DNA of 64,000 nt from a virus (taxonomy: Duplodnaviria; Caudoviricetes). The stretch is taken from positions 20,498-84,497 of the IMG/VR virus record IMGVR_UViG_3300032319_001071. The stretch is one strand, 5' to 3'. A program made the position numbers and the translations under genes. Under the pieces are notes generated by a model, which saw only the letters and a list, made by a program, of their open reading frames with translations, was not told the DNA's origin and did not search any database. Shown piece after piece: positions 17,701-51,250 of this stretch (within the stretch, counting starts at the first letter, position 1; each line of letters begins with the position of its first letter).

Positions 17701-19497
17701 TGCATCAGTACTAATAAAGGAACAGATCAAATCGCCCGCGGCGCTTATGTCGGAAAAACCTTTTGTTATTGCATATTTTGCATTAAAATCAAATGATCCT
17801 GCCGTTTGAGATGAAAGACTTCTGAAAGGATACGATTGAGATACGCCATAAAATCCAATTGCACCGCATTCAAGACGACCTGCATCGGCGCAAACAACAG
17901 CAACCGAATTTGTTCCAGAATCCGGGGCAGTACAATACCATACTTCAAGTCTATTTTGTTCTGACCATGCTGCATATAATTTAGTTAATGATTTACTGTT
18001 ATAACTAACAGAGGTAACAGTATTGTATAAATCATCCATTTGAACCATTACAAGCAAAAGTCTATCGCTATTAGAGCCTATAGTATGATTAAACGAAATC
18101 TCGGAGGCCGCATCAGCAATGGTAATTGTTCCTGTAGTTGATGGAGGTGTGGTATTTTCAGCAAGAACCAGAGGCACATCTGGAACATATTGTAATCCAG
18201 AAATTTGATCGTATCCAGTAGTAGTTCCAGTAACAGAACTTGTCCCAGTTGTGGTCGTAGATCCTGTAAAACGTGTAACTCCTACATAGCGTTGAATGGT
18301 GCCTCCACCACCCTGTCCCCCCCATCCTGACGGTCCATTTCCACCCGCTCCTCCGCTGCCTCCTCGTGCTTCAATTGCACCTGAACCCGTTTCCACTTCA
18401 CAAAAAATAATGACAGTTCCAGCTCCGCCACCTCCGCCACCTCCGGGATCATTACCTCCTGTTGAAGTGCCATTTGTTCCATTTGCCGTGATAAGACCAT
18501 TATTTATAATATTTCTTGAAATGATTCTTAGCGATTTTCCGCCCAATCCCTTGGTTGTACTTGAATCTCCGGCATTTCCGCCTCGATGTCCATCATAAAG
18601 AACGCTAATATTATCATAATAATTTGTTAACGAAAGAAAAGATGGTCGAAGATTGTTGGAATTCTGATAACCTCCCCCACCTCCCGGTTGAGTACCATAA
18701 TTGTTGGCCGAATTGATGCCACCCGTACCGTTGGAATATCCAGAGCCGCCACCGCCACCTGCAGGACCGCGACCATAATCGCCGCCGTATCGATCCTGAT
18801 TTCTATAGCCATTCTGTGACGAAATAAATTCTTCTTGATGATTAAAAATGCTATTGTCCGGATTGTTGAAAGCGCCATTTCGACCGTACAATGCTCCCGG
18901 CCATTGTTGCGCATTTCCTGATTGAAAATATGAATTATTATAACTATCATATGCGGCAGAGTTTCTGATAAACTCAATTCCGCTTCCACTATTTACAAAT
19001 GGCAAATAAATATCGTCTTGATAATCGCCACGAATTATTCCGGCCGCAGTTGCTCCAGATGCTGGACTAACAGTAAGAGTGCCGCTAATTTTTACAAGTG
19101 GCATAACTCCATATGTTGTAAGGCCCGATGTTGTTACTCCACCAGCAGGAACAGTTGAAAATTGCGTTTGAGACAATACCCAGCTAAGACTACTTCCGGA
19201 AGCAATGGTTGTGCCAAGTTTGACTGGTCCGCCAACTATTTCATTGCCAACACCTATTGTGCCAGTAACTGTTCCAGAACTAACAGTTAATGTTGTAGAT
19301 GAAGGAAAAATGGTTGCAGTAAATGTTGCGGTTAGCGGTCGAGCAATAACAAGAACGCCGCCTGCTGATACCGTAACATTGGTGAAATTTTTATTTGTAG
19401 TAATAATATATGGAGAATTTGCAGCATTGACAGTTAATGCGCCATCTGCTCCTGTGCCAAAATCTATTTCAACATTATTGTATTTTAAAGAAGCCAT
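14770..19497 (-). CDS. Large glycine-rich modular virion/fibre protein
   Basis: 1575 aa; several GGGG-rich (polyglycine II-type) domains and beta modules shared with other tail genes. Confidence 0.75.
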   Translation of the reverse strand: MASLKYNNVEIDFGTGADGALTVNAANSPYIITTNKNFTNVTVSAGGVLVIARPLTATFTATIFPSSTTLTVSSGTVTGTIGVGNEIVGGPVKLGTTIASGSSLSWVLSQTQFSTVPAGGVTTSGLTTYGVMPLVKISGTLTVSPASGATAAGIIRGDYQDDIYLPFVNSGSGIEFIRNSAAYDSYNNSYFQSGNAQQWPGALYGRNGAFNNPDNSIFNHQEEFISSQNGYRNQDRYGGDYGRGPAGGGGGSGYSNGTGGINSANNYGTQPGGGGGYQNSNNLRPSFLSLTNYYDNISVLYDGHRGGNAGDSSTTKGLGGKSLRIISRNIINNGLITANGTNGTSTGGNDPGGGGGGGAGTVIIFCEVETGSGAIEARGGSGGAGGNGPSGWGGQGGGGTIQRYVGVTRFTGSTTTTGTSSVTGTTTGYDQISGLQYVPDVPLVLAENTTPPSTTGTITIADAASEISFNHTIGSNSDRLLLVMVQMDDLYNTVTSVSYNSKSLTKLYAAWSEQNRLEVWYCTAPDSGTNSVAVVCADAGRLECGAIGFYGVSQSYPFRSLSSQTAGSFDFNAKYAITKGFSDISAAGDLICSFISTDANETISMDSVYGGSQLSKWSPAGTKRTASLTKNPSVITEVTSWSFATARNWCVIQCSIANSTWDGSLSIPSQTFLGANRTYSISGTSTTSNASTLYFYHGNGGISPETTFTPGTAASPLKPNYPHNSYVQTSGYTPSGYNGFWKVSTSSRDQTRYQNNFQVVSTANPGDASVNGTITAPAIFEVCPNNLATSGTFLKLFGNIITLGLNGRIIVSGIVHFCPVTSFNINGATIDGNGMGLTAAKNSAINWYYYNTNHGGSNVLANFPGKVTQSGKGNNVGHIPLQWRHLYQTAIDGYVSYIRTGQANFTYTFGVGQEGSSEWYADANWYGVSGTRIDTYDGGIAGHNNIEALGNGGGGGGNGGTGGDGGTDANAFQSAGGASVSTSALTYAPFSIGRTLLRLSNTTGGVLKHGFYYRILSLGTSDFTTVGASSNTVGTYFKANVIRQQVISNLTGYTKTGYETGLGYVTPWPPYVSYSYMSGSDIYDVWIFKPGTTNITTTQALTADILIVGGGGSGGASMGGGGGGGQVREFFDYSLTANRTYSIIVGSGGQKSGFYTPMSIPPAGYGGNPSSFGTITSLGGGAGGGQNSGWNSGGGGASGGGNGCEIGATGTSTAANSSPGTGQPAGSGFYSGGSAGNNDCGGGGGGASSAGSAGTASKGGDGGNGISSSITGQTIIYGAGGGGGARSNKSGGYGGQSLLKYPNGATGGTGGGNTTNYHGNPGTKGTGSGGGGGGYNSLYSDYYGGHGADGTVIIRIKRSNQTMAKFNLGNQVTMGGGGGAGNNFVILARENAYGGVNGADGGNGGACVVVTSLTIAGSGLITVNGEEGHPAGTNYAQQISDVDGHSSYIQMSGSAGGGGAGGTIYLRSKYYNSSATFSAVGGKGGDNLHTNSGDYRPGGYNGFGGGGGGGKLLVGSELFVQNPVVTSSLVAAGAQGTNGSASFWSDVTYTAPSTGIYQNSTVLYFSGIVGSIIWF

Positions 19498-19506
19498 TTT
19501 TGAAAA

Positions 19507-22500
19507 CTAACTCCCAAATTCCATTGCAACCGCTTGAACATTGGCAGACGCTGTTGACGTGTCATTTGCTGATGTAGTGGCACGCTGTAGTCCAAAGTAT
19601 AACAAAGATCCAGCAGCAGGCAGAGAGGTGGACCATGTTAACGTGCTAACAATAAGTACGCCAGAAGTTGCTCCAGTAGAGACTCCTACCTCGGCAGATG
19701 AAACTTGAGTAGGAATGCTATTGACAGCCCCATTTCCCACTACAGACGCAGCATACGCTTCCCATCTTACTTGTGAATTTGTGCCACTTGAAATATACCA
19801 ATACACTTTAATTAAAATATTTCCTCCACTGTAATTGAAAGGAACACTTAATGTTGCGTAAGCAATTTTATTTGATCCATCAGAGTATTGTAATTCATAT
19901 TTATCCATTCCAGAAGTGACATAAGATAATGATGCTCCCGACGTAGATCCGGGCACAAACGCAGAAGCAGGAATTACACATCGCGGAGCAAGTCCTCCAG
20001 CAATTGTTCCCGTTACAGAAGTGTTGTTATTTAAAGTAATACCCCCGGGCGCTCCAACCCACAAGCTTTTTCCGGCAGTGCTTGTGTACAATCGTATTTG
20101 ATTTGCTCCCGTATTATCATCAATAGTGTATCCAATGGTGCCAACTGACAGCGACGTAAACGCTCCTGTAGCCGGAGTTACTGCTCCCACGCTTCCATTG
20201 AGAGGTCCGGAAAACGCCGCGGCAGTTACTGTTCCTCCTACGCCAAGTCCTCCTGTAATAACAACCGCACCTGTTGCAGTACTTGAGGATGCCGTATTCT
20301 TCGTAAAAGTTACTAAATCATCTGCGGCCAGCGTTGTAAATTTCCCCGCCGCAGCAGTCGTTGCTCCCACGGTGCCGTTATGCGCTCCGGTCAAAGGCCC
20401 GGAAAACGCCGTGGCAGTCACGGTGCCGCCTACACCAAGCCCTCCCGCAATAACAACAGCACCTGTTATTGTGCTACTGGATGCAGTTGATGATGCAAAT
20501 GTTGATATTCCTGAAGATACATAAAGTGCAGTATTTGTAGTTCCTCCAGATGGAGCATCAATATACACGCCATACGCATTTGCCGCAGAAGTGGTGCTTG
20601 AGTTTACTTTAATTCCGTATGAGTTAGTAAGTGTCAAATTTCCAATTGTACCTGATTTTGTTGGAACACCACTTATTTCAAGACTGGAAGCATTAGACAA
20701 AGTTGTTCCTGAAGAGGTTGCAGAAATTGTTATAATATCAATTTTTTCAGAAGAAATTGTTTGTGCCCACGATCCAGTTGTTGATAACGTAACATTTGTT
20801 GCGCCAAGATAAAGGTTTTCAACATATGAATTAATTACAGAATGAGTGGAATTTCCTGAAGATGAATTAAAAGTATTTAGCGCTGACCAAGAATTTGGCA
20901 GTCCTGTATTGGTTCCAGCAAGAATCCACGAGACTGAAGTTACAGTAATTCCTGATCCGGAATTTGGTGAAGCATTTGCACTTAAAATTAATGTTCCAGT
21001 CCCAACTCCAAGACTGGTGCCTAATCCGCTAATGGTTGTTCCTGCAGGAATGTTTGTGCCAGTAATGTATTGTCCAACTTGAAATGTTCCATTTGGAACA
21101 GATGTCAGGGTAATGGTTGACGATCCGTTTGTAATGGTGGCCTGAGCCGTGACGGTGGTGGCAACTCGCACAAATCCGCCAGTGTCCAATACAAAATCAC
21201 CGGCAGAATACGTTCCTCCGGTCGGAATGCTGTTGGCGACTGATCCGAGATATCGACCAGACAGCACGTTCGTGCCCCATGCAGTCGATCCGCCAGTAGC
21301 GGAAAATCCGGTGCCAGTAATTAATCCGGAAACTGTCAATGGTTTGGCCATTGTAATCAAAGACGATCCGAAGAAAGCCGCATTTCCTCCGGCAGATGAA
21401 ACGCCCAATCCGTTGCTGCCGTCATAATACAATCCATAACCAGTTGCGGATTGGAATGCATAGGAAGGAGCAGACGCGCTTCCGGAAACTTCCTGCAACG
21501 TGTTGTTGGCCAGAATTGTTCCGGATGTTCCGGCCGATAAGGAAAGATTGGCAATTGTGGTGCCGTCCGTGTTGCTTGCAGTAATGGATCCTGATCCAGA
21601 TCCACCGCTATTGGATCCGCCGCTGATGACAAGTTTTACATTGCTGCCGTTACCTGCAGTTACACTTTGGGAAAACGTACTGTCTCCAGTATTGACAGAA
21701 GAAATTTTATCTCGAATATCAAAATAACTGTTACTACTTGCAATTCCGGAATAATAAAATCCAAGAGGAATGCCATACACGCGCCCATCGACGGTGTTAA
21801 GAAGAACTGCATCGTTTGCGTCACCGTTGCCAGCAATCCACAAGCGAGTATCATTTTCCACATTAAAATCGGTTCCACTTGCCAAAGTGCTGCGATCAGC
21901 CCTAACAAATGTTTTTGAGGGAGTAAACCATCCGTAAATTGTTCCGCTATTAGTTGTTTGATTTGAACTGACTTGATAGGTGCCAACGCCTCCCGTTCCA
22001 GTATATCCACCGCCACCAATAGTGACTGTCGTTCCAACGGTCACTCCATTGCCGCTGATTGTCATTCCATTTGTAATATATCCAGATGTAACTCCAGTAA
22101 CAGTAAGTGTAACTCCGTTGATATATCCGGTAAATACGTTGCTAACTCGACCGCCTTGTGCGTAGACAAGAGTATTTGACGTATACGGACTGGCGGAAAG
22201 TTCAAATCCTTTTCCAGTGCCATGAGTGGTAATGTTGACGCCGGGGCTTTGACGAAGTCTCCATCGGACTTGAATGCGTCGAGTTGTTTCAGCGCCAAAT
22301 GTCGTGTCTTTTAATTCATTGATAAGTGGAGAAGCATTTGTTCCTCCCGGAATAATATCTTTGCCGTATTTATATACTGAAGATAATTTTAATTCATTTG
22401 TTGCAGATGTTCCGTCATAAGATTCGGCAGTTCCTGTTGGAACAACTTCCTGAAACCATAATTCAAGCCATGAAAAAACGGCAGATGTAGAACTGGTGTT

Positions 22501-22848
22501 GGTAAATCCCGCAAAAGGTATAACAATTGATTGATTGGCTCCTGTGTTTGCGGGATCGGCAACGCGAGCAACTGTTCCAAAAAAATTGACACGCGAGTCT
22601 GTAAGCGTTACATCTGTTCCTGAAAGTGTCATGGTTGACGTATTTACAAATCCGGAAGTAAATAATGTTCTTGAAAGTTGCGAAACAGACTCTTGAAGAA
22701 TTCGTTGCATTGTATTCAAGTCAAAATCTAGAATTGATTTTGATTGTTGAAAAACAACGGAGTCCCATGATTTTCCTTGAACATCAATATACGAAACACG
22801 ACTGGTCCGTAAGGACGATGCCCCAAGATATGGATTGATAGGTTTCAT
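19507..22848 (-). CDS. Proximal tail fibre with baseplate-attachment N-terminus
   Basis: N-terminal VVFQQSKSILDFDLNTMQ motif typical of myovirus fibres following wedge genes; Ser/Thr/Gly-rich shaft with repeated SSSTATGAVVIxGGLGVGGTV. Confidence 0.75.
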   Translation of the reverse strand: MKPINPYLGASSLRTSRVSYIDVQGKSWDSVVFQQSKSILDFDLNTMQRILQESVSQLSRTLFTSGFVNTSTMTLSGTDVTLTDSRVNFFGTVARVADPANTGANQSIVIPFAGFTNTSSTSAVFSWLELWFQEVVPTGTAESYDGTSATNELKLSSVYKYGKDIIPGGTNASPLINELKDTTFGAETTRRIQVRWRLRQSPGVNITTHGTGKGFELSASPYTSNTLVYAQGGRVSNVFTGYINGVTLTVTGVTSGYITNGMTISGNGVTVGTTVTIGGGGYTGTGGVGTYQVSSNQTTNSGTIYGWFTPSKTFVRADRSTLASGTDFNVENDTRLWIAGNGDANDAVLLNTVDGRVYGIPLGFYYSGIASSNSYFDIRDKISSVNTGDSTFSQSVTAGNGSNVKLVISGGSNSGGSGSGSITASNTDGTTIANLSLSAGTSGTILANNTLQEVSGSASAPSYAFQSATGYGLYYDGSNGLGVSSAGGNAAFFGSSLITMAKPLTVSGLITGTGFSATGGSTAWGTNVLSGRYLGSVANSIPTGGTYSAGDFVLDTGGFVRVATTVTAQATITNGSSTITLTSVPNGTFQVGQYITGTNIPAGTTISGLGTSLGVGTGTLILSANASPNSGSGITVTSVSWILAGTNTGLPNSWSALNTFNSSSGNSTHSVINSYVENLYLGATNVTLSTTGSWAQTISSEKIDIITISATSSGTTLSNASSLEISGVPTKSGTIGNLTLTNSYGIKVNSSTTSAANAYGVYIDAPSGGTTNTALYVSSGISTFASSTASSSTITGAVVIAGGLGVGGTVTATAFSGPLTGAHNGTVGATTAAAGKFTTLAADDLVTFTKNTASSSTATGAVVITGGLGVGGTVTAAAFSGPLNGSVGAVTPATGAFTSLSVGTIGYTIDDNTGANQIRLYTSTAGKSLWVGAPGGITLNNNTSVTGTIAGGLAPRCVIPASAFVPGSTSGASLSYVTSGMDKYELQYSDGSNKIAYATLSVPFNYSGGNILIKVYWYISSGTNSQVRWEAYAASVVGNGAVNSIPTQVSSAEVGVSTGATSGVLIVSTLTWSTSLPAAGSLLYFGLQRATTSANDTSTASANVQAVAMEFGS

Positions 22849-22852
22849 CGTC

Positions 22853-24181: not shown

Positions 24182-24185
24182 AATT

Positions 24186-27068
24186 CTATTTAATATACAC
24201 TTGATCTAACACTAATATTGTTCCAATAGTAGGAACAATAATTTCTTGATCAATATTAGAACTGTTTGGAACAAAAAGTTTTACTGACGCCACTCCCGGA
24301 GTACGCATAATCATTTGAGTAAGTGCTGATTTTTGAAAATAATTTACAAGTGGAGAAGTAAATGTGTACGAACTAAGTATTGAAGTAGTGTCAGTATACG
24401 TTAAAGTGGTCAAAGAAGAAGCATCAACAGTTCCGGCCAACCCCCACTGCACTCCGTCCCATCTCAATATATCGTAATAATTAATAGTTGGACCTGTTGA
24501 ATCTTTTGTCCAAGTCAAAATGTTGGAAATTTGTGCATTTGAATTACTGATTGTTGCAGTTGCCGATGGAAGAGAGTAATTTCCATTTGAGTCAATTGCT
24601 ACAATTTTATACACATACGTATCAGTTCCTGTGGCTCCAGACGCCACTACGCTGGTAATGATTGGAACTTGAAATCCGTCACTGATATCAAGATCTGCAA
24701 AATATTGTTCAATATTTGTTTGAATAGTATCTTTAATAAGTAATAAAGAATATCCGGAATTAGTTACAACATTGACCGTAATAGATTGATATTGAGGAGT
24801 TGCTCCGTACACCGTGACAGGAATTCCGGCAGGTTTGTATCCCGCTACTTTTGTACCATTATCATCTGTGTACCCATTAATTACTTTTTGTGTGTGTGCA
24901 ATAAGATCACTCGTTGTTCCTGAATTTGTACTATCATAAATATATACATTAACTACTTGATTTGACGGTTCTGTCACCAAGGATTTTGTTACTTGTTGCT
25001 CAACAAATCCGTTGCTATCATATATTCTTGAAGAAAGCGCTCCAACACCGATGGATTCTTTTGTTCCTCGGGCAAGGTCTTTGAGTGTTTTGGAAAAGCG
25101 CGTCCTCCATTGTTCTTCTGTTTCAATGTCCGTTCCAGTTATAAACGCAGCAGAATTCGTGCCTGAAGCAATTCCATAAACTGGAGTAACAAATTCGGTA
25201 ATTGTGTTAGCGCCTGTATTTCCAGATAAACCATAATTTACTGATTGAACAACAGAAGTCAGCGTAGCGTCAGAAGAATTCATGGTTACGGAATTGGGGT
25301 ATACATATAATTTTGAAGAGCCGGGAACATAAACTTGAGTCCCAGCCGGAATGGAAATTGGACCTTGATACGAAAACGCTCCGGCATATAAAGGCCACGT
25401 TTTTACATTAGAAGTAATCATTGAAGATTGAATATATGAATCAGAAAAAGTTAATATTGAACCAGATGTAGTGCCAATAAAAACCGGAGTGGGATAAATA
25501 GACAAAGTTGTAATGTCGCTATTGTTATCACTATAATAATTATCAGTAATATCCACAGTTACGGGAGACGAAAAACTAGGCGTAACATCACGATAAATTC
25601 GATACCCAACTGCACCAGATGTGGCCGCCCAAGATAACAATGCAGTTCTGTATGAGGAAGTAGGAACAAAAGAAACTGAGGCACTTGGAGTGCCCTCTCC
25701 GCTGCTGGTCAAAGAACAAACACTGTAATAATACGTAAGTGATCCAGTAATATTGGTAATTTGTGATCCTGCGCTTCCAGATATCTGATTGACACTAACT
25801 GTATAATTACCTGTAGATCCAGTTCCCGATCCAAATGCTACAATGGTTGTTCCTGATTGAATTGAAGCACTGGTTAATACTTGACCTATTGCCAATGATC
25901 CGCTGCTGACAGCCGAAACGGTCAAAGTGGTTCCGGCAATATATCCGGTAAATGTACAGCCATAATTCAAGGTTCCTCCCGCGCTGCGGGATATTGTCAA
26001 TGGATTAGGGGCCGTAGTGCCAAAATCATATGGAGCGCGATAGATGTTATATCCGGTTGGTTTTGATGCTATGTCGGCTGCACTGCTTCCTAACCATGTA
26101 ATTTTGGCCACTGGCCCAGTCGGAATTGATTTGGTATACGCTCCCAAACTTTGAAGGTCTTGTCCATTGGTGAGATTTTTAGCACTTACTCCCCACGACA
26201 ATGCCAGTCCCGGCCATTTTTTTGACGTTGCAGTAAGATTGCTGTCTGTATATGTAACTGATGATTGACCGGAAATTGAATAATAAACTGAAGTTAGCAT
26301 GTAGGCGCTTGTTGATCGATAAATTCTGTATCCGGTAGCGTTTGTTACGGCCGACCAAGTCAATACAACATTTTGAGATGACGAAAATGTTACAGAAATA
26401 GGTGAAGTTGCAACACTTTCAACGGAACCATACATTGCAGAAATACTGTAATAATATGTTCCGGCAGTCAGGCTCCCACTTGCTACAGTTGAGGGTACAG
26501 CAAAATTTGTCGGAATTGCCAGTGTTCCATACAATGTAAATGTAATCAAATTTCCTACCGCCCCGACAGTTTGACTAGTATTGACGGTGTACGTTCCAAT
26601 ACCTCCGGTCCCCCCTGCAAACCCAGTGATTACTGTTCCGGCGGTAACCCCTGTTCCGTTAATTCCTTGACCTAGCAATAACGATCCAGACGACACGGAT
26701 ACCACGGTTAATGTTGTGCCAGAAATATAGCCGTTTACTAATGCATTTACAGAAGAAAAAGTCACCGATACGTTAGAGGGCGCAGGCAACTTGGCTCGAT
26801 AGGCAGTAAATAATCCGTAAGCCTTGGACGATTGCAGCAGCGGTTGATTAAACGCTTCCTTCACGGAGGCGCGTATTGCATCGGTAATTCCTTGAGCATA
26901 CGATAAATTTTGTCGATATAACTCTTGAGCAATGCCCTCAAGCAATGATCTAGTGATGCTTCCTTCACTAAAATCATTGACATATTCCGTATGACCGGCA
27001 AGATATCCTGCCAGCGACGAAAGAATATTTTCTTGTTTTTTCAATTGAAATGCTACTGTTTCAACCAT
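24186..27068 (-). CDS. Baseplate J-like protein with FN3-like and beta-module insertions
   Basis: [49 protein letters not shown]; extra [18 protein letters not shown]3-like repeats. Confidence 0.9.
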
Positions 27069-27110
27069 GATTCAATCCTACCAAATTTATATGAACAAAT
27101 ACTCTTGCTG

Positions 27111-28718
27111 CTAGATCGGCAAAGCAATTGGCAAAAATGTCAGCACAGAATACGATGAACCGTCACTGGAAATTTTTACAGACAAATTATCGATCACCAC
27201 TTTTTGCTCTTGACCATCATATCGAACCCGAATGTTATCAATAGAATACACTCGAGGGTCTTGCTGTATGGATTGAATTAATTCGCTTTTTAAACCAAGA
27301 AGAAAATTTACACTATATTTACTGCCAATCATGGCAAGAGCGCTATTTCCATATTGAGGCTGTGTTTTTAAATCTTCCACTTTTGTAAGAAGACGAGATA
27401 GTAGCGCTTGTTTTAAATTATTTAATCCCGTTATTGACGATATATCGCCCGATCCAGCAACATCAAAAACCAATTGGCCAGTATCATCAATTTCCATGTC
27501 TGTTCCAAGTGAACTGACAAATTGTGATGGATTTTTAGTGTTAATAATAAAATTTACTTGCTGAGAGGCAAGAGTTGGCAATAATAATGTTGATCCTGTC
27601 TGAACAATGCGAGTGTTAAATTGTTCAGGATTTTCGTGAATGGAAAAAATTGTTCCAGATGGATAATAATTGCTTATTCCAATATAAGCAGTATTGCTGG
27701 ACGGAACTGATGCGCCTTGAGCAGAAATGCCATTGACTGGTTCAACATAATATCCTGCATTAGACGCATTTTGCTCTGCTGTAATTGTTGCTTGATACGC
27801 AAGTGATGTGGGAGATGTTCCTATGTATAATTTCAGGCTTGTTGTATAGTCGGGCCATGTGTCGGGAGCGGTAAACACCAGCAATCTTTTTTCTCCCGCC
27901 GATGCTGATGCGCTGGAAATAATGTATGGTAATGCCGCTCCACTGGTAGTGTCAATATTGAGCGGAGAGCCAATGGTTTCTCCCGATTCGGTTGTGTAGG
28001 TGTACCGCACATAATACGTTCGACTGGTCATTGACGTTGTCAGCGGAATGTTTGCAGTCAATGTTTGATTGGCAACAGTTACTGGTGAGCTAGTGTAAGA
28101 AAGTGTATATGTACCAATAGAACCCGTGCCAGTAACAGATGAAACAATAGTTGTTCCTGCAGGAACTCCGGTTCCAGACAGTGACATACCGATGGAAATG
28201 TAGCCAGAAACAACAGAAGTCACGGTCAATGTAGTGCCGCTGACTGATCCGATAAATGAACAAAACTGTGTTGTAGAAACAAGACCGGAGGTTTCTGCGC
28301 TGACGCTGGGAGGGTTGACAAGTGAGGCGTCAAATATCAGAGTTCCTTCGGGTATTGTGCCGGAAGCAAAAGAATAATATTTTTTAATACGCAAAATATT
28401 TTCAATATTTCCACCATATTGAGTAGTTTTAGAAATATAAAATACAGAACGATCAGACAATACAAGCGAAGACAAATCACCATTTGTCACATAAGGCAAG
28501 AAATTCATAGATATTGATCCCGCAGCAAGGCTTGACGAGAGTATGCTCGAGCCTTTGGCTGGACCTAATATGTCCAAGGTGCTATTGGCAATGTATGGAT
28601 ATCGTAAGCGATTTAACGAAATAATTTCTGATGACCGTCTGCTGTCGCCCAGATATTTTTGCGCAATACTTTCAATAGTATCTCCGTATTTTACAATGTA
28701 ATTCTTATACGTTGCCAT
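27111..28718 (-). CDS. LysM + gp25-like baseplate wedge protein
   Basis: [19 protein letters not shown]...IISLNRL (LysM); [15 protein letters not shown]...QYG...QDPRV (gp25-like). Confidence 0.85.
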
Positions 28719-42538: not shown

Positions 42539-42554
42539 GGTGTTTCCTCCAAAA

Positions 42555-42589
42555 AAAAGAGCGTGTGATAAAACTATCACACGCTCTTT
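42555..42589 (-). terminator. Intrinsic terminator after the tail tube gene
   Basis: Perfect 16-bp inverted repeat AAAAGAGCGTGTGATA-AAC-TATCACACGCTCTTTT with 8 T on the minus strand. Confidence 0.8.
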
Positions 42590-42609
42590 AAAATGTCAAG
42601 AAAACAGTG

Positions 42610-43263
42610 TTATCCTGAAATATACGCTGATGCAGGAGTCTCCATTAACCAGCCGCGACGATACAAGGCAACAAACTCGCATTGATGAACCGTGATCTGA
42701 TTGGCATTGAACCGAACGCTTCCGCCGTTGAAGTAGCAGTTGTCGTAACGAACAACCGAAACAGTTGTCGCCTGAGCGCCGGATGTCCACGTGGGAGACA
42801 GGATTTCAATGCTGAATGACTTGCCGTGCAGGACGCGAAGAGCGCCCTTGTTACTGGTGTCCAATGTGCCCACGTTTGTGTCGGCGCTCATGTCGGTAAT
42901 GACCGAGTCAAACGACCCAATGGTTGCTTGCTTCAGGAAACCATAGTTACCCGCGCCAGTCGGCTCGAGATTAGCCATTGCCAAACTGGAGTCCTTCATG
43001 ACCATGACCGTGAGATTGATGGAATGACGAGCATCTGTTGGAACGTAATCAATTGGAGACAACTGTCCAAGCACGTGAATGGGCTGCAATCCGTACGCGT
43101 CAGAACATGAAGCCTCATTGGCAAATCCAATGATCTGATTGTCCATCTTGATGAGGATTTTGCCGCCGACAAGAACCTTGTTGTTTGAGAGCGTCGGTGG
43201 ACTGACTGTTCCGGTCGTATTTTTGACCGACCCTCCACCGGGATCGCCTGCAGTTAATGCCAT
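42610..43263 (-). CDS. Tail tube protein
   Basis: KILIKMDNQIIGFANEASCSDAYGLQPIHVLGQLSPIDYVP...YDNCYF tube pattern; directly after the sheath. Confidence 0.85.
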   Translation of the reverse strand: MALTAGDPGGGSVKNTTGTVSPPTLSNNKVLVGGKILIKMDNQIIGFANEASCSDAYGLQPIHVLGQLSPIDYVPTDARHSINLTVMVMKDSSLAMANLEPTGAGNYGFLKQATIGSFDSVITDMSADTNVGTLDTSNKGALRVLHGKSFSIEILSPTWTSGAQATTVSVVRYDNCYFNGGSVRFNANQITVHQCEFVALYRRGWLMETPASAYISG

Positions 43264-43288
43264 GATAGTGTCTCCTTTTTATCAATTT

Positions 43289-46048
43289 TTACGAAACATA
43301 TGCCGTAATTAAAATATAGTTGGCTGGCTTGGCGGGAGAGATATTAAAATCAATATAGTAAGCATCACCAAACACTCGAACCGACACATTCTTGTACGCA
43401 GGGTACTGAAGAGGGTTGTTGGGATCAGCAATGATCAATCCGCGTGCCGCAGCAATATTCAACATGTCAACAGTCACCGAAGTGATGGTGTCTACCAATT
43501 GCTGACTGGACTTGCTGCCAACAAAAGGAGAGACTGCATTGCGGACCAATTTCATGGTTTCATCTGCAGCGCGGACAGTACTGACTTCGCGTCGGGCTGT
43601 CTTGCCGTCGCCCGTCCATGTAGTGAGCGACTGCACAATTACAAATCCTCGACCAATATCGTTTCGCACTGTAAATACACCGTTATTGACCAGATCATCA
43701 ATGGCCGCTGGTGAGGAGGTGGTCTCCAATCCATACAGACGGATGGTCTTGTTTGTCAACGGCATTGAAGGGTCATCCTGAGCCGCCATGGTTCCGGCAA
43801 TCTGGGCCGCAAGATAATAAGGAGGAAGAGCGGACAGAAGTCCATTGTTATCATAGTCTACAATACCCGGCCACACTAGCACGGCACGTTTGTCGTTTAG
43901 CGCAGCAGCCCGAACCTTGGCGTCAAGATACGTCTCGGCAGAAGCCCCACCGCAAACGGCAATTCTTTCGCTCTTTCCACTTGGCAATGACATTGCCTGA
44001 GCATGGGAAAGGGCAGCAGCGTGATAGGCGGCTGAAGAAGTCATGGGGACCACGAAATAGGCGGGCACAGACTGAGCGGCCACAAAAGCATTTGTCCAGT
44101 CCGAACTCACTGCATCCGGGTCAAAATCTGTAACGCTGCCGGTTACTACTGATCCGGTGATCGCAATCGGGCTTCCCGATGAACCAACGTTCTGTGATGC
44201 GCTGACCGTATACGTGCCTGTTCCACCCGAACCTGTGCCAAGTGCCGTAATGGTGGTGCCCGCGGACACGTTTGCACCGGCAATTATCTGCGAAAGTACA
44301 ATCGTTCCTGTCGGTGAGGCCGCAGCCGTAACTGACACGGGACTTCCCGATGAAGCAACTTGCTGGCTAATGCTTACAGTGTATGTTCCCGTTCCACCCG
44401 TGCCGGTTCCTCCAGCCTGCGCTGTAGCGATGACGCCGGTAATTGCGGGAGTGGTTGCAACGCCTGTAGTGCCAGTTGTTGCCGTGTATCCAACTCCACC
44501 CGTGATCGGCGTAGCAGCCCCGAGTGCCGGGACACCGCTGGTGACTGAACAGGAGAAGAATGCGGGCGAAGTGCTTGTTCCTCCTACGGAAAAATACAAT
44601 GTTCCGCTTGCTCCGCCCAGATACCCACTACCGGCGGTAGTGATGGAGAAAGCCGAAAGAACTCCTCCCGTATGAGTGATGGTTCCCAGCAATCCGCTGC
44701 CAGTTCCTGCGGTATATCCTGTTCCTCCACTTGAAACCGAAACGGCTCCTGTGGGGGCACCGCCGGTCAGACCTACACTCAGGACGGCCTGTGTAGTGGA
44801 GTTGGCCGTCGATCCAGCAGTGAAATACAGTGTACCGCTATTGGCCCCTGCAACACTGTATCCACTACCGGCACTGGCAATTGCAGCAGCAGTGATAATT
44901 CCAGATGGGGCTGTGGCGTAAACGGTTAAGCCGCTACCTGTGACCGGTGTTACAATGGATGTTCCGCTTGTGATTCCTGTTCCAGTAAGCGCTTGAGTCG
45001 CAATAATCGATCCGCTTGTCACCGAAGTAACAGTCAACTGTGTTCCTGCACCAATTCCGTTTACACCGCTGATGTATCCGCTGAAAGATGCGGTCGAAGA
45101 AACAACCGTGAGTGTTGTTCCAGAGATATATCCACTGAATGTTGATCCTGTGGAGGTGAAGTAATTGAAGGAATACACTCCGTTGCTAACGGCTCCGCCG
45201 CTATTTGAAACAAAAGAGCCGGTAAGAAAAGGTCCAAGGATCGTGCCGTTCAGAGCATCGTTCATTGCCGCAATGTTGGAAGTCAAGACGAATGGTGTTC
45301 CGGTATACACAGGGACATTGCCACTTACTCCGGAAACCGCATCAAGCGTGGATGTGAGAGCATTCTCATCTGCACCGGTTACAACACTTGCCTTGAACGC
45401 ACCAGCCGCGTTGATGGCGGCAACCATGGCGTTCAGTCTTGGATAGTCTGAAAAATTGTATGTTACTCCGTTTCCGCCTGTCGTTGTCAATGTAATGCCT
45501 GCAGCACTGACATCAACTCGTCCGGTGACGCTAAGGGATGCGCTTAAGATATTGATTGACTGACGAGCAATGTTGTCGGCGGTGTAACTCCGTCCGTCAT
45601 GCAAGATCAACGTTGCTTTCTTGCCAACACTTGCGCCATTGACAGTGATGGTGTTTGTCGATCCCGAAACGGTCAGGGACCATGCTTTGCAAAACTTTCC
45701 ATACTCTGTCGTTGTCGCCTTGATTACTTCCGTTGTCGAATTCAGCAACGAGGCAGTGAACGCCTTGGAGCGACCGACTCGGACACCGTACACGGTTCCT
45801 GCTCCAGCAGCAAGTGCCCGGTTGATTCCGTCAACGAGAGGACGGTCCTGCCCCCCGGTTCCGTACACGGCAGTTGCAGCCGCGGCACTGGTGAATGCCA
45901 GTGCTGTATTCGGCTGGCCACGTTCTGCCACGCCAACAACAACCACGCTGTTTGGCGTTGCCGAAACGCCCGACGATGCCTGACTGTCATCAATATATGA
46001 AGCCACTCCGGGTGCCGACAGCACCACTCCGCGAAATCCTACAGGCAT
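43289..46048 (-). CDS. Contractile tail sheath protein with ~330-aa nested insertion
   Basis: APGVASYIDDS, VGVAERG, YGVRVG N-terminus; LAAQIAG...PLTNK, GVFTV, STVRAAD C-terminus; AAGGAG RBS. Confidence 0.92.
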   Translation of the reverse strand: MPVGFRGVVLSAPGVASYIDDSQASSGVSATPNSVVVVGVAERGQPNTALAFTSAAAATAVYGTGGQDRPLVDGINRALAAGAGTVYGVRVGRSKAFTASLLNSTTEVIKATTTEYGKFCKAWSLTVSGSTNTITVNGASVGKKATLILHDGRSYTADNIARQSINILSASLSVTGRVDVSAAGITLTTTGGNGVTYNFSDYPRLNAMVAAINAAGAFKASVVTGADENALTSTLDAVSGVSGNVPVYTGTPFVLTSNIAAMNDALNGTILGPFLTGSFVSNSGGAVSNGVYSFNYFTSTGSTFSGYISGTTLTVVSSTASFSGYISGVNGIGAGTQLTVTSVTSGSIIATQALTGTGITSGTSIVTPVTGSGLTVYATAPSGIITAAAIASAGSGYSVAGANSGTLYFTAGSTANSTTQAVLSVGLTGGAPTGAVSVSSGGTGYTAGTGSGLLGTITHTGGVLSAFSITTAGSGYLGGASGTLYFSVGGTSTSPAFFSCSVTSGVPALGAATPITGGVGYTATTGTTGVATTPAITGVIATAQAGGTGTGGTGTYTVSISQQVASSGSPVSVTAAASPTGTIVLSQIIAGANVSAGTTITALGTGSGGTGTYTVSASQNVGSSGSPIAITGSVVTGSVTDFDPDAVSSDWTNAFVAAQSVPAYFVVPMTSSAAYHAAALSHAQAMSLPSGKSERIAVCGGASAETYLDAKVRAAALNDKRAVLVWPGIVDYDNNGLLSALPPYYLAAQIAGTMAAQDDPSMPLTNKTIRLYGLETTSSPAAIDDLVNNGVFTVRNDIGRGFVIVQSLTTWTGDGKTARREVSTVRAADETMKLVRNAVSPFVGSKSSQQLVDTITSVTVDMLNIAAARGLIIADPNNPLQYPAYKNVSVRVFGDAYYIDFNISPAKPANYILITAYVS

Positions 46049-46102
46049 TGCTTTTTACTCCTTCGGGGGGACAAGTCGCATTGAAAAATGATCTTGTTCT
46101 TG

Positions 46103-46121
46103 TGATATTGTGACAATATCA
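46103..46121. promoter_or_regulatory. Operator-like palindrome upstream of the sheath gene
   Basis: TGATATTGT-G-ACAATATCA perfect 9-bp inverted repeat at the end of the upstream gene and intergenic gap. Confidence 0.35.
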
Positions 46122-46448
46122 GGAATTTGATTCCCACCTTGAGAATTTTTCCAGCCATCCCGAAGGGGTGTCTGCAAACCAATTCTGCTGCTTTGCGAAA
46201 TATCGAAAAGCACCTAATGCTTCGGAACTGACAATGATTCCTTGAGGAGACCAGTTATCCAAAAATTCGGGAATGCTATCCAGCGGACGAAATCCAATTG
46301 GGTATTCCACTGGCAGTGGAACAAGGTCTGAAGGTACGGGCGCAACCTCTACAGGCTCCACCACAGGCTCCACCACAGGCTCCACCACAGGCTCCACCAC
46401 AGGTTCTTCCGGAATGGCGGGATCGATTGACGCATTTGCTCTAGGCAT
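46119..46448 (-). CDS. Small acidic Pro/Glu-rich hypothetical protein
   Basis: AAGGA RBS before MPRANAS; EPVV repeats. Confidence 0.7.
   Translation of the reverse strand: MPRANASIDPAIPEEPVVEPVVEPVVEPVVEPVEVAPVPSDLVPLPVEYPIGFRPLDSIPEFLDNWSPQGIIVSSEALGAFRYFAKQQNWFADTPSGWLEKFSRWESNS
46351..46402. repeat. 12-bp tandem repeat (ACAGGCTCCACC) x ~4 encoding EPVV
   Basis: Read directly from the sequence; in-frame within the 46448 gene. Confidence 0.9.
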
Positions 46449-46459
46449 TTTTCTTTTCC

Positions 46460-49400
46460 TTACGCTTGGGCTTCGGTCCATGACAACCGAGTGATAATGG
46501 ATGGGCTGCTGATTGTGCCAATTGGAGTGGCAACCATGGTGATAACGTCCGGTCCATCAGGGTATTTCCCGGAAGCACCAGAAGGAACTGCATTGTTTGC
46601 TCCGCCACCAAGAATGGATGTCGCAAGATCGCGGACCACGCTCAAGTCTTGCTGAGTTACGCCACTGTTGTTGGTAAAAAAAGTGAAGATTTTCTCGCCT
46701 GTGCCGGGAACAAGACGATCAGTCGAAGAATGAATGTAGCGCTGAGCAAGAGAACTTCCTCCAGCGCTAGTAAAAACGGCATTGCTGTAATATAATGTAA
46801 TTCCTGTTCCGCTATATAGTGCCGGAAGAGAAATTTTTGATGTACCCCAATTGGAAACAAATGTTCCCGGCTGAATGCCATTTCCGAATACATATGCTCC
46901 TGTTATTGGAGTCGTGCCGACAAGGGTTCCTACTGTCGCAATGGTTGTGCTGCCAGCAGTGAGAGCCGCTCCGTAATACTGTCCTGTGGAAATGGCAGCA
47001 TTGAGCCACAAATCCACAGCAAATGCATTTCCGCTGGTTTGCGCATCCATTTGACGCAAGATCAACTGCATGCGATTGATGATTTCTTTTGCACCCATTG
47101 CTCCGGTATTGCCAGAATCTACGCTTGGAGCAATGCGAATGGAAATCAGTGGGTATTGTTGTCTGGCAGAAAATCCCGTCAGGGGAACATTCATGCCTGC
47201 CGCAAACACCAATGATTTGTCATCGTCATATCTGCCATCCATGATAACGGCGGAACCCCAATGGGAAAGGGTGGTGGCTAGTGATGGAGCAAATAACTCC
47301 ACTTTTATTGGCGCTGTTGCCGAATACGTAAATGATGTCGCGGAAGAACCGCCCGCCACGCCTCTGGCGCTTACAGTGAACGACGTGTCCGTGCGAGATG
47401 TGTAATCCATGTATTCAATAGTTCCCGAAGAACTGGTAACTACAATACGCCCGCTGGGAGGAAATTGCGAGGCGTCATTGACGTAAAATGTTCCAGTAGC
47501 AGTGGTAATTCCCCACGCAGTTACATATGTTGTTGGAGCAAGTGTATTTGTTTCATACCGAGCGGCCATGTTTCCGCTTCTCATGTATGCTTCTGTATTT
47601 ACATTATTGTTGATAATTCTGTGTCCATAAATGACTTCGCCACGGTTGTTCTTGAAACCAAAACGAATTGCTCCGGCTCCATACCAAGAATAATCCATAT
47701 AAAACATTTGCATTTTAGCAAGATCAACATTAAATCCACTTGATCCTGTTCCGTCACATTTGTCAATATTCCATTGTGATTGAGGAATGCGCGTATCAAC
47801 AATTTTGCTAACAATAATACCCGATTGCACAGAATATGTAAATAATGTACTTATTGGTGTTGAGCCGCGATATTCAGGATAAATAGTCATTGATGTTTGA
47901 GAGGTAATTGAATTAACTGTATATGATTGCCCTCGAATGACTATGTTGTCTCCGGGGGCAAGTTGATCGGCAAAATATGTTCCTTGTCCGGTTACTGTAG
48001 GTGAATTAGTAGTAACACTTACGGTACCACTAATTTGTCGCGTAGAGGAGCGACGAACCGCATAAAGATTTTGACCATCATATTCAAAAAAGAAACCATT
48101 TTGCTGATCAAACATTCCAACACGGTTTTTTCCTCCGTACCATCCACTTGGCGAGACGGTAAGAGCAGAACCCGGAATGGTATACGCAAAATTTGGAGTG
48201 GCATACGTTGCGGTTGTGCCCGCTGATCCAGCCGTCATCGAAGTGGTGCAAGAAATAATCAGTACTGTCGTGCTGAGAACTTGAAGAACAGTAACAACTC
48301 CCGCGCCTACATTGCTAAGACCACTAAGAACTGAACCCGGCACAATTCCTGTTGCCCATGTCGTTCCTGCGACGGTCAACGTTGCAGAATAAGGAGCCGC
48401 AAGCGTTGCAGTCGGACCTGTGCCACTGACAATGCCAATAGTGATGCCTGATGCAGTTCCTGCAAGGGCATTGGTTCCAGAAACCGATGTGGCATTGGTA
48501 GGAGTATTGCTTCCTGTTGAATACGTAAAATGATACGGACTTAATACACTTGCAACACTGAAAATTCCGTTATATGCTGTCGATTGTATGATAAATTTTT
48601 GAGACGAAACGGTTTGTGAAACAATGGCAGTTAATGATGTAGCGCTGACATACGTCACAACTCCGGCGCTTGTTCCGTCCGCAAAAATAAACGTCTGTCC
48701 GGTCATTGCAGATGAAAACTGTGTGCCAACCCCTGTGATGGTAGTCCCACTTTGCGAAGCAACACCGCCGGTATTCAACCCATTGATGTCCACTGCTCCG
48801 GTTACACGCACCGTTGGTGCTGTTGTCATTCCTCCCGGAATGACAATTCCGTGGGGATTCTTGGTTGTCACAAGAGCCGTTGTTCCGTTTGAAACAATTT
48901 GTTCCACACTAAATGAAGGTTTTAAAATTGATCCGGTAGAAAATTGAATTGATTTTCCGGATTGATACCGAAAATACCTTCTTGTTTGACGAATTTGTTG
49001 CAATCCATTAAACGGACTTTGATTGGCAAATTGCACGCCACCGTCAAAAGCCCGATGAATGACATATCCTTGTCCTCGTGGGTACAATATTCCCAATGTA
49101 CCCCCAGTAATGTTTGTGCCACCATTCCATGTCAAATTACCGGTTGTAGCGCCACCGTTTGCAATATACGTAAACGTCGTCGCCGTTGGCGTAGAAGCGA
49201 CAACAAATGTTCCAGCATAATATGTTCCACTTACATTATTAACATGAATATGTTGACCAACATTTAATCCGTGAGCAAATGAAGTTGTAACAGTAGCAAC
49301 AGTATTTGCCGCAGCAATTTGATCAATTGAAATTGAAGAGCCGGTGTACCATGATCCGGGAAAAATTTGCGTTTTTGTCGGATCATACAAATTAGGTGAA

Positions 49401-50365
49401 GTATTATTGTAAAAAAAAGTGGGAACATTTATGGTTTTGAAAGTAATCTGATCTCGAGTAGCAGTGGCTCCGCCCGATCCTGCGGTAATTCCGTCAATAA
49501 TCCACCATCCGTCCACATTTGCTTGGTCAGAACTATTTAAGATATATATTGGCTGACCAACATACAATGTTGTGCCGCCGGTGTTTATAAGCAATGTGCA
49601 TATTCGTGTGTTAGCAGACAGATCATGCGTAAGGATTGAAGGATCAGCAGTTGACCCTCCTGCAGTAGTCAAGGGAGTTCCGGCATTCTTGAATGGAAAT
49701 CCATAAATTACATACTGTTGAGCGGTGCCATATGTAAGGGAATTGGTAACGGTCAATGCTGTGGCGCTCGAAACCGCGGTAATCACTCCGGCTTCTGTGC
49801 CGTCTGAATACACAAGGCGGCTATTGATCATTCCCGGATGAAATGCAGTGTTGGTTCCTGTGACCGCTGTAGTGCTTTGCGTGATGGTACCGGCATTGCT
49901 GATAAACTGCTGACCTGCAGATTCTGGAATATAGAATGCTGTTGGTCGATTATTTACAACAGAAATGGATTCCCATTTTGTTTGTTGCGGTCCATATTCA
50001 AAGTCCGTGTCAATCAATGACTGCGGTGACGAAGTACGCATTTTCCCCACGGGGTCCATGAGGGTTTCAGAGGGATTAATAGTTTCGTATGTTTCCTCGA
50101 CAAGAATGGAAATCTTGTCGGTGCTTACATGGAGTGTCGTATCGTATGAAACAACAATGGTTGTCATTTCATTATTCATGCCATTTACTATGGGAGTTAC
50201 CGTTGTGGCGGCAAAAGTAGAATCACTAAAATTATATAACACAACATTTCTGGTGACATTGGTAATCAGCAATAATTGCTCTCGCCGAATCCATTTCCCC
50301 ATCACCACGATGGTCTTTGTGCTAGGAGTGAATGTATATCCCTCGAGAATGACACGCTTTGCCAC
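46460..50365 (-). CDS. Large virion structural protein, paralogue A2
   Basis: GTG start with GAGGAG; colinear homology to 52990..56577 (PVGKMR.S.PQSLIDTDFEYG, RQTRRYFRYQSGK, MQMFY.DYSWYGAG, RLSWTEAQA). Confidence 0.8.
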   Translation of the reverse strand: MAKRVILEGYTFTPSTKTIVVMGKWIRREQLLLITNVTRNVVLYNFSDSTFAATTVTPIVNGMNNEMTTIVVSYDTTLHVSTDKISILVEETYETINPSETLMDPVGKMRTSSPQSLIDTDFEYGPQQTKWESISVVNNRPTAFYIPESAGQQFISNAGTITQSTTAVTGTNTAFHPGMINSRLVYSDGTEAGVITAVSSATALTVTNSLTYGTAQQYVIYGFPFKNAGTPLTTAGGSTADPSILTHDLSANTRICTLLINTGGTTLYVGQPIYILNSSDQANVDGWWIIDGITAGSGGATATRDQITFKTINVPTFFYNNTSPNLYDPTKTQIFPGSWYTGSSISIDQIAAANTVATVTTSFAHGLNVGQHIHVNNVSGTYYAGTFVVASTPTATTFTYIANGGATTGNLTWNGGTNITGGTLGILYPRGQGYVIHRAFDGGVQFANQSPFNGLQQIRQTRRYFRYQSGKSIQFSTGSILKPSFSVEQIVSNGTTALVTTKNPHGIVIPGGMTTAPTVRVTGAVDINGLNTGGVASQSGTTITGVGTQFSSAMTGQTFIFADGTSAGVVTYVSATSLTAIVSQTVSSQKFIIQSTAYNGIFSVASVLSPYHFTYSTGSNTPTNATSVSGTNALAGTASGITIGIVSGTGPTATLAAPYSATLTVAGTTWATGIVPGSVLSGLSNVGAGVVTVLQVLSTTVLIISCTTSMTAGSAGTTATYATPNFAYTIPGSALTVSPSGWYGGKNRVGMFDQQNGFFFEYDGQNLYAVRRSSTRQISGTVSVTTNSPTVTGQGTYFADQLAPGDNIVIRGQSYTVNSITSQTSMTIYPEYRGSTPISTLFTYSVQSGIIVSKIVDTRIPQSQWNIDKCDGTGSSGFNVDLAKMQMFYMDYSWYGAGAIRFGFKNNRGEVIYGHRIINNNVNTEAYMRSGNMAARYETNTLAPTTYVTAWGITTATGTFYVNDASQFPPSGRIVVTSSSGTIEYMDYTSRTDTSFTVSARGVAGGSSATSFTYSATAPIKVELFAPSLATTLSHWGSAVIMDGRYDDDKSLVFAAGMNVPLTGFSARQQYPLISIRIAPSVDSGNTGAMGAKEIINRMQLILRQMDAQTSGNAFAVDLWLNAAISTGQYYGAALTAGSTTIATVGTLVGTTPITGAYVFGNGIQPGTFVSNWGTSKISLPALYSGTGITLYYSNAVFTSAGGSSLAQRYIHSSTDRLVPGTGEKIFTFFTNNSGVTQQDLSVVRDLATSILGGGANNAVPSGASGKYPDGPDVITMVATPIGTISSPSIITRLSWTEAQA

Positions 50366-50404
50366 TGATGATCTCCTCTTGCGCTCACTAGCACAGACAG
50401 TTTG

Positions 50405-51250
50405 TTATCGGGTAACGGCCCCAAAATTGATGGTGGCAATGCCGCCTGCGCCAGTGACTGCGTTGTGTACGTACAGGCGGAAATGAATCCAGACATCCGT
50501 TGTGGTGATATTGGTTACTGCGGCTCCACCGGCTGGCGACAATGAGATGTCCGATCCAATATCTTGCCAATTATTGAGACCGGTTACTGACCCTTGCAAC
50601 TTGAATCTTCCGCCTGAAATGTTGGTTTCAAAAACTTCAATGGTGAAATTGTTGCGTCCCGGCAATTGCATGGTGACACTTTCCGTACCAACAGGAGTTG
50701 CTGTTCCGGCAATGGTGGTTGATGCGACATATGCCGTCATTTCCGTTGCTGTACTGACCGTCTGGCTTGGAGTGATTACCCATGAGGTACCCGATCCTGA
50801 AGAAATGGTCGTTCCCGCAGTCACTCCAGTGCCGCTGATCTTCTGCCCAACGGCAAGTGTTCCGCTTTGCACGCTCGCGACTGTCAGCGCCGTTCCGGCA
50901 ATCGTTCCGGTAAACACTGCCGGTTGCGTACTAACGCGATAGGTTCCCGCATATCCGCCAGCGTTCAGGAATTCCTGAATGGTCGTTCCTGCAAGGATGC
51001 CCGTTCCACTAATGGTCTGTCCGACAAACAGTCGTCCGGTTGCCGCTGCGGTTACCGTCAACGTTGTTCCGCCCTGCGATGCGGTAAATGATCCGGTTCC
51101 GGAAATTGGCATGATATCGTAGAGTGCAATGGGATTGCGGGCAAGATAAAAATTCCTCTGTGCTTCCGCAATGTCGTCAATAACGTACGACGAGGGACTG
51201 TACCCATACAGTTTCTTTAATCCAACTTCACTATATTGCTTATCTGCCAT
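50405..51250 (-). CDS. Virion protein with two beta modules
   Basis: CAGGAG RBS before MADKQY; two TTLTV...GQ.ISGTG..AGTTI modules and a jelly-roll-like C-terminus. Confidence 0.75.

Follow-up and report, generated by a model that had tools for sequence, protein, structure and literature searches.

A predicted small beta-barrel module shared by six tail proteins of an uncultured contractile-tailed phage: probably an old decoration domain rather than a spreading element

What does it mean that one short, glycine- and threonine-rich protein module recurs in gene after gene of a single phage tail? We address this question in a 64-kb window (positions 20,498 to 84,497 of the uncultured virus record IMGVR_UViG_3300032319_001071, 84.5 kb long and with an estimated completeness of ~59%), where a first-pass annotation had proposed a mobile, spreading, domain-level system that decorates the tail. 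In the open reading frame (ORF) list of the window, every large gene within 14.7-56.6 kb lies on the minus strand, and this cluster is the tail module of a contractile-tailed phage. We consider it probable that the repeated module is an old, vertically inherited decoration barrel with local turnover, likely engaged in weak multivalent binding.

Profile searches found ten copies of a 62-75 amino acid (aa), Gly/Thr-rich module in six minus-strand tail genes: one in a 1575-aa protein, two in a 1113-aa fibre, two in Baseplate_J, one in a gp25-like protein, two (plus a split copy) in the sheath and two in a 281/286-aa protein (Table 1). A hidden Markov model (HMM) started from the two Baseplate_J copies and run iteratively, to convergence, against the window translated in all six frames (window HMM) recovered nine full copies, all in frame with long ORFs and with domain E-values of 1e-15 to 1e-23. 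A second model built from 428 external module copies (broad HMM) also detected the 1575-aa protein's copy, as well as two fragments of an apparently split sheath copy, for which the HMM evidence is weak on its own. The first-pass count of at least ten copies agrees with this result, and its coordinates fall within a few codons of ours. Its wider claim, that the module occurs in nearly every structural protein, went too far: 6 of the ~20 structural ORFs between 14.7 and 56.6 kb carry it, and neither HMM found it in the tube protein, the tape measure, the tube initiator, the S74 fibre, two paralogous virion proteins (the “A” paralogues) or the 442-, 187-, 576-, 767-, 263- and 553-aa proteins. 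Relics reported in both “A” paralogues are not significant, the best match reaching 8 bits (aa 16-66 of one) with nothing in the other. The remaining ~20 kb of the 84.5-kb record held no further copy.

AlphaFold2, run on Baseplate_J copy 2 with a 36-sequence alignment of copies, returned a confident all-beta domain (predicted local distance difference test, pLDDT, 87.9), and the module can confidently be modelled as a small beta-barrel that folds autonomously. Among solved structures, it best matches the small chain (chain 1/2) of 8ECI, at 34-35% identity and a root-mean-square deviation (rmsd) of 2.2 A over 61 residues (Z 5.4; Foldseek probability 0.98, E 0.19). Copy 1, taken inside a 600-residue model of Baseplate_J, matched 8ECI at Z 6.5 over residues 106-180; across both models, which are predictions and not solved structures, identity in the structural alignments was 29-35% and Z ranged from 5.4 to 6.5. 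The next matches were EF-Tu-domain-2-type barrels (Z 5-7) and barrels from the N-termini of F1-ATPase subunits. Ubiquitin E1, in its FCCH region (4P22_B, residues 216-297), matched at Z 5.5 and rmsd 2.7 A, a range common to many unrelated barrels, and the Mystique tail tube (9N71) at Z 4.8-5.9. The leading matches are closed barrels, with a few antibody chains appearing solely with poor Foldseek scores, and the predicted topology is a barrel, probably not an immunoglobulin (Ig) or FN3 sandwich. Sequence-profile searches of the PDB gave nothing significant (weak matches to L2 and MCE barrels), and a Foldseek search of the PDB with the whole 600-aa Baseplate_J model likewise yielded no significant match, as one would expect for a model of several domains.

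The domain probably extends to ~75 aa, a conserved core of 62 aa followed by a further C-terminal strand, since copy 1 is matched structurally as far as residue 180-182, one strand past the 62-aa profile, and in most window copies the S-Q-rich end is followed, at a comparable spacing, by an alternating hydrophobic strand. The first and the closing strand of the module have similar sequences, and where copies stand in tandem, the place of the closing strand is taken by the following copy's first strand. The barrel of Baseplate_J copy 2 may be closed by one more strand, at aa 437-443.

The family to which the module belongs is very large and uncurated, and consists of accessory decoration domains on tailed-phage virion proteins. 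A ten-copy profile searched against 1.84 billion cluster representatives matched 5851 of them at E <= 1e-3 and, at E <= 1e-10, 1656; a single protein can contain as many as 26 matching stretches. Carriers include RHS-repeat proteins, pectate-lyase-type tailspikes, tail-collar, T7 tail-fibre-like and P22 gp10-like proteins and, among the models in BFVD, an HK97 major capsid protein, lambda Stf-like fibres and collagen-like proteins of giant viruses, which superpose at template modelling (TM) scores of 0.84-0.88 with 38-53% identity. Pfam holds no model for the module (ten copies, even at E <= 10) and neither does NCBIfam; on the carrier proteins these databases returned only matches to the host families and a sub-threshold match to TIGR02243. 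In PHROGs, the module is an internal segment of phrog_21413 and phrog_38233 (tail-fibre family). The ESM Atlas returned nameless clusters and one E1_FCCH-named viral cluster at 0.85, which we take as a lead only. A tblastn search of one module and the 286-aa protein against cultured phages gave no match, probably owing to the low-complexity filter and the short query. A curated family model would annotate thousands of phage and RHS proteins now called “hypothetical”.

Do the copies look as if they had spread within this genome? Relatives were obtained via protein searches and the contigs that encode the proteins found; a search of viral contigs using Baseplate_J gave none, and cultured phages, searched by megablast with 22 kb from the tail region, gave no match. 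The window copies are mutually 32-55% identical, and each is nearer to some external copy (54-73%) than to any other copy in the window. Copies at the same site in different phages share a mean identity of 47.3%, against 41.3% for different sites in the same phage and a background of 42.0% (Mann-Whitney p = 3e-6), and no within-genome pair is nearer than the cross-phage pairs. The HMM and phylogeny proposed in the first-pass annotation as a check for intragenomic spread point the same way, with weak support: in a FastTree tree of 56 copies, many group by site (Baseplate_J 1, Baseplate_J 2, gp25-like, inner sheath) and not by genome. Microhomology at the DNA level, also proposed as a check, amounts to 25-37 nucleotides (nt) at ~70% over the most conserved motifs. 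Comparing the DNA of the window copies, we found no near-identical copies and no terminal DNA repeats, and profile scans of the tail region, covering its 18 largest ORFs, showed no mobilising gene.

The sites themselves are shared among relatives. Both Baseplate_J sites are occupied in 14 of the 14 analysed orthologues, as overall identity falls from 96% to 39% (P0151-P0165, where P0161 is the protein of relative L017). The gp25-like protein of L017, ~40-45% identical to ours, has a diverged module in the corresponding position. For the last sheath module, orthology extends over three phages, including the sheaths of L015 and L011, and the inner sheath copy is nearest to copy 2 of the L015 sheath, at 60% identity. 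Change is visible around these sites. Tandem pairs occupy Baseplate_J site 1 in P0161-P0163 and P0165, which are distant orthologues, and site 2 in P0158-P0159; the L015 sheath has one extra copy; and in L017 both Baseplate_J and the gp25-like protein carry further domains directly after the module. The latter protein (L017:14182-16944, 920 aa) has an extra ~370-aa insert (aa ~235-606) straight behind its orthologous module, and the same contig encodes a 1204-aa protein with matches to lactonase-type beta-propellers. We conclude that domains accreted long ago at permissive hot spots and that duplication, loss and further accretion came after; the distribution is not that of a currently mobile element. 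The idea of a mobile, spreading system is largely contradicted by the outcome that its own proponents had named as refuting it, the clustering of copies with orthologous positions in distant phages, and the DNA divergence of the copies also speaks against it.

Residues ~95-560 of Baseplate_J, comprising two modules and FN3-like beta-sandwich repeats, form an insert between the N-terminal segment and the J core; we read them in this way because ORF62 of Staphylococcus phage 812 (348 aa) matches aa 9-89 of our protein, plus a second stretch, and the J core lies at aa ~565-810. Two other J-family chains of 350 to 378 aa match the J core alone, at aa 585-810. The repeats of the insert carry FN3-like motifs (a Trp strand, GY-x-IYR and a Y-Y-Y-x-V hairpin) and the all-beta model fits, with no match to Pfam fn3 in the Baseplate_J or gp25-like host regions even at E <= 5 on sub-regions. 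The best structural match of aa 254-522 is the SPO1 capsid chain 9VEL_C (Z 9.7). Copy 2 and its closing strand sit between a strand ending in G-G-T-L-N-Y-G and the Y-Y-Y-S strand, and the same hairpin is uninterrupted both in an internal repeat (aa 190-213) and in the module-free orthologue P0166, where ~75 residues are absent. Judged from these alignments, copy 2 appears to be inserted at the beta-hairpin of an FN3-like domain, with a junction uncertain by about seven residues, and the split repeat noticed in the first-pass annotation, next to an uninterrupted one, is borne out. We rejected a different register, in which a G-S-L-T/Y-Y-Y-S hairpin stays intact after copy 2, since the barrel of copy 1 includes the following strand and P0166 lacks the whole segment.

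A common insertion loop for all copies, as initially claimed, applies to two or three of them. In the gp25-like protein, the copy precedes a T-Y-Y-V-R-Y hairpin, a place comparable to that of Baseplate_J copy 2, and lies well upstream of the intact gp25 core (aa 368-518). For the remainder the claim fails: Baseplate_J copy 1 follows a different strand than copy 2, the fibre, sheath and 281-aa copies have no FN3-like host domain, and in P0167-P0169 the module comes after the hairpin rather than within it. Throughout, the core folds of Baseplate_J, gp25 and sheath are uninterrupted, with the modules placed in extensions or in a variable middle region. Even a sheath, a baseplate wedge or a gp25-like protein can thus accommodate inserts of this kind at hot spots that are conserved. 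P0166 is devoid of the module, and other small barrels occupy its site 1. Its aa ~100-480 contain repeats of a different barrel-like motif which, by eye, resemble the E1_FCCH-like repeat at aa 795-856 of P0176, another carrier of the module; if they are E1_FCCH-like, one hot spot accepts different barrel families. The first 90 residues of Baseplate_J are strongly conserved among orthologues, match aa 3-83 of phage 812 ORF62 and were modelled by AlphaFold2 as isolated helices with pLDDT < 50. This segment probably folds solely in the assembled wedge.

The sheath modules are found within the variable middle region of the protein (aa ~104-623). Relatives' sheaths align at aa 1-103 and 556-919, and the phage 812 sheath (5LI2) at aa 640-907 only. 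In solved sheaths (T4 gp18, phage 812) the variable middle forms outer domains. Because the modules lie between conserved segments and this region is outer in known sheaths, we infer by analogy that they are surface-exposed and that the assembled tail would show many barrels. The apparently split sheath copy encloses another module together with two units of a second module type, an arrangement that looks like a nested insertion, and a 71-nt DNA repeat (44169-44239 versus 44340-44410, 72%) joins the ends of the last two sheath copies. The second type, ~65 aa long with the motif G-S-G-Y ... G-T-L-Y-F ... G-G-x-G-Y, has no Pfam match; it also follows directly behind module site 2 in the distant Baseplate_J orthologues P0161, P0163 and P0165. 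Its presence shows that more than one domain type has been shuffled among these tail proteins.

We hypothesize that the barrel was added long ago to permissive sites in this phage lineage: the outer sheath region, the Baseplate_J insert, an N-terminal extension on the gp25-like protein, a pair of fibre-type proteins and one small protein associated with the virion. It would have been inherited vertically since, and change would have been local only, through tandem duplication or loss and the arrival of other small domains at these hot spots. Placed in loops or extensions, the barrel would leave the host folds intact and be displayed in many copies on the assembled tail. There it could bind cell-surface or environmental polymers with low affinity and raise adsorption through avidity. 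Ig-like phage domains have been proposed to raise adsorption by weak binding, and by analogy with them weak multivalent binding of surface polymers seems the most likely role.

Several points weigh against this explanation. The match to 8ECI is modest (by Z and by Foldseek E alike), and HMMER profile searches of PDB sequences miss that entry. Conservation falls mostly on Gly, Thr and hydrophobic positions, whose role is structural, which leaves no binding site to point to. On the baseplate proteins, exposure is a presumption. The tree of copies rests on ~60 columns and its groupings have little statistical support. The orthologue comparison covers one clade, and older events of horizontal acquisition are not datable.

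With the same fold and history, the barrels could instead be a cement or shield, their lateral contacts stiffening or protecting sheath and baseplate much as gp7 of phage Bridgette (8ECI) reinforces its capsid, a role that we regard as the main alternative, conceivable but rather unlikely. The closest solved relative is a capsid decoration/cement protein that binds as dimers, the structural character of the conservation, with no evident ligand site, would suit such a role, and the strong conservation of the sites across the clade suggests a function tied to assembly. However, the same module occurs in fibres, tailspikes and RHS proteins, where cementing is unlikely, and copy number is free to vary between relatives. 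A contractile sheath must also rearrange, which would make a fixed lateral cement on its outer domains awkward.

We entertain only tentatively a more general notion, in which the whole family is a loop-insertable plug-in that drops into beta-hairpins, expands in tandem and nests within itself, and which in this lineage covers sheath, baseplate and fibres with a multivalent binding coat over the entire tail. It is suggested because the first and closing strands are alike and may adjoin, because a sheath copy is split and because relatives have extra domains after the module. Far less probable is an actively mobile domain-level element now copying itself into new structural genes of this genome. 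Ten copies in six genes, copy numbers that vary among relatives through the tandem pairs and the extra L015 copy, and a split sheath copy enclosing another would be in keeping with it; judging by their sequences, the likeness of the first strand to the strand after the module could even favour in-frame recombination. Yet the copies are as diverged from one another as from those of other phages, their DNA similarity is negligible, no terminal repeat was seen and no mobilising gene among the 18 largest tail-region ORFs, the Baseplate_J sites are kept down to ~40% host identity, and the gp25-like and last sheath sites are kept in the relatives examined. Recent mobile activity is largely refuted. 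That the likeness is compositional, with Gly/Thr/Ser-rich beta-strand segments converging without common ancestry, is scarcely credible and already refuted by profile statistics and structure models: the copies do carry little charge and much G, T, S and V, and BLAST with a low-complexity filter found nothing in cultured phages, but HMM E-values reach 1e-23 in full-length, in-register alignments, the confident fold is reproduced both alone and inside Baseplate_J, and the BFVD models superpose on it.

The old, vertically inherited decoration barrel is thus the explanation that we carry forward, and Table 1 places its copies in the tail gene cluster. Staphylococcus phage 812 is the source of the closest solved relatives of the sheath and of Baseplate_J (5LI2 and 9EUF in the PDB). 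The gp25-like protein matches phrog_975 at E 2e-32, and its Pfam Sheath_initiator match is below that model's own cut-off. In contrast to this core, which resembles phage 812-type myoviruses, the “A” paralogues look cyanophage-like: they are mutually 60-70% identical and share 40-45% identity with virion structural or “fiber” proteins of T4-like cyanophages (S-PM2, Syn1, S-RIM44). Between the sheath gene and the nearer paralogue, a 12-nt unit, CCACCACAGGCT (plus strand), forms ~5 tandem repeats at 46346-46405, within a 120-aa minus-strand ORF (46119-46481).

Table 1. Module copies, second-type (G-S-G-Y) modules and tail genes in the window; positions are those of the window unless a contig is named.
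Feature	Position (nt)	Strand	Residues (aa)	Evidence and remarks
Module, 1575-aa protein	19150..19329	minus	57-116	broad HMM 23 bits, independent E-value (iE) 7e-8; missed by window HMM; most diverged copy
Module copy 2, 1113-aa fibre	20959..21147	minus	568-630	window HMM E 3e-19; broad HMM 6e-12
Module copy 1, 1113-aa fibre	21946..22140	minus	237-301	HMM E 1e-19; matches phrog_21413 positions 398-463
Module copy 2, Baseplate_J	25773..25958	minus	371-432	HMM E 1e-22; apparently at FN3-like domain hairpin
Module copy 1, Baseplate_J	26559..26744	minus	109-170	HMM E 4e-22
Module, LysM/gp25-like protein	28071..28262 (window HMM: 28077-28262)	minus	153-216	HMM E 2e-22
Last sheath module	44180..44362	minus	~563-623	HMM E 2e-17; directly ahead of conserved C-terminal sheath domains
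Inner sheath module	44891..45091 (window HMM: 44888-45091)	minus	320-386	window HMM E 7e-15; broad HMM 3e-9
Split sheath copy, N-terminal fragment	45068..45145	minus	302-327	HMM positions 2-18, iE 9e-4; first two strands
Split sheath copy, C-terminal fragment	~44351-44443	minus	~536-566	HMM positions 31-62, iE 4e-3
Module copy 2, 281/286-aa protein	50750..50920	minus	116-172	HMM E 1e-18
Module copy 1, 281/286-aa protein	50915..51094	minus	58-117	HMM E 2e-23; tandem with copy 2
G-S-G-Y module, sheath	44459-44659		387-455	
G-S-G-Y module, sheath	44690-44896		466-532	
G-S-G-Y module, 442-aa baseplate protein	23138-23359			
G-S-G-Y module, relative L017	L017:18596-18796			
Tail protein	14770..19497	minus	1575 in total	Gly_rich_2 domain and one N-terminal module
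Fibre-like protein	19507..22848	minus	1113 in total	two modules
Baseplate protein	tail cluster	minus	442 in total	
Baseplate_J (gp6/gp47-like)	24186..27068	minus	960 in total	Pfam Baseplate_J aa 565-794, E 1e-21
LysM + gp25-like sheath initiator	27111..28718	minus	535 in total	Pfam LysM aa 7-42, Sheath_initiator aa 420-507; phrog_975 aa 368-518
Tail sheath	43289..46048	minus	919 in total	Pfam Phage_sheath_1 E 2e-8; phrog_279 E 2e-42
281/286-aa protein	50405..51265	minus	281/286 in total	tandem module pair and C-terminal ~110-aa domain, family unknown
“A” paralogue	46460-50365	minus	1301 in total	cyanomyovirus-like virion protein
“A” paralogue	52990-56577	minus	1195 in total	cyanomyovirus-like virion protein
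Further tail-cluster genes		minus		tube initiator; tape measure (SLT + M23 domains); tube protein; S74-chaperone fibre

Accessory small beta domains on virions are a known kind of feature, and what sets the present one apart is a sequence family that is large and has no database name. The locus provides a well-documented case for this family, with defined boundaries and a module-free orthologue. Its practical value lies in annotation and in the choice of constructs for cryo-electron microscopy (cryo-EM) or binding assays; no new kind of mobile system is revealed. Of the first-pass interpretation as decoration domains, then, what stands is a single self-folding module whose nearest solved relative is a capsid decoration protein, and what falls is its active mobility.

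That relative, the 8ECI chain, comes from Arthrobacter phage Bridgette: it is gp7, which decorates the capsid and binds as dimers around the pentons (bioRxiv 10.1101/2022.09.09.507160; PMC13033339). The N-terminal domain of gp7 (residues ~7-75) has the same small barrel fold as that predicted for the module, and gp7 is an accessory protein of the virion exterior. In contrast, gp7 is a separate, capsid-binding dimer protein of 125 aa, and the module is an in-frame insert in tail proteins; with no HMMER profile link between them, they are distant members of one family at best. FCCH-type barrels, which face outward on siphovirus tail tube proteins (PMC13576161), offer a second parallel: in the tail tubes of the PF08813 family, NBD2 gp39 and MED16 gp13, a tail protein likewise bears a fused, small closed barrel. 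In P0176, an array of ten modules is followed directly by a segment resembling E1_FCCH. The two have different motifs, however, and Pfam E1_FCCH (PF16190) matched none of the ten window copies at E <= 10 and none of the host proteins. They are different or very distant sequence families, linked by weak structural similarity only.

A further parallel is with the Ig-like accessory domains (Big_2, I-set, FN3) that reportedly occur on phage structural proteins, including T4 Hoc. Like the module, these are promiscuous small beta domains found on capsid, tail, sheath and fibre, dispensable for the host fold, varying in number among relatives and supposed to bind surfaces weakly. They differ in being Ig sandwiches, added C-terminally by frameshifting, whereas the module is a predicted barrel inserted internally and in frame. 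The sheath, finally, follows the plan of T4 gp18 (domains I-II) and of the phage 812 sheath (domains III-IV, 5LI2), in which the variable middle likewise holds extra domains and the N- and C-terminal parts build a conserved inner layer; here the putative outer region is built of module copies common to baseplate and fibre proteins, together with the second module type. The locus is a rich instance of a habit already known from phages, the decoration of virion proteins, and not of an actively spreading element.

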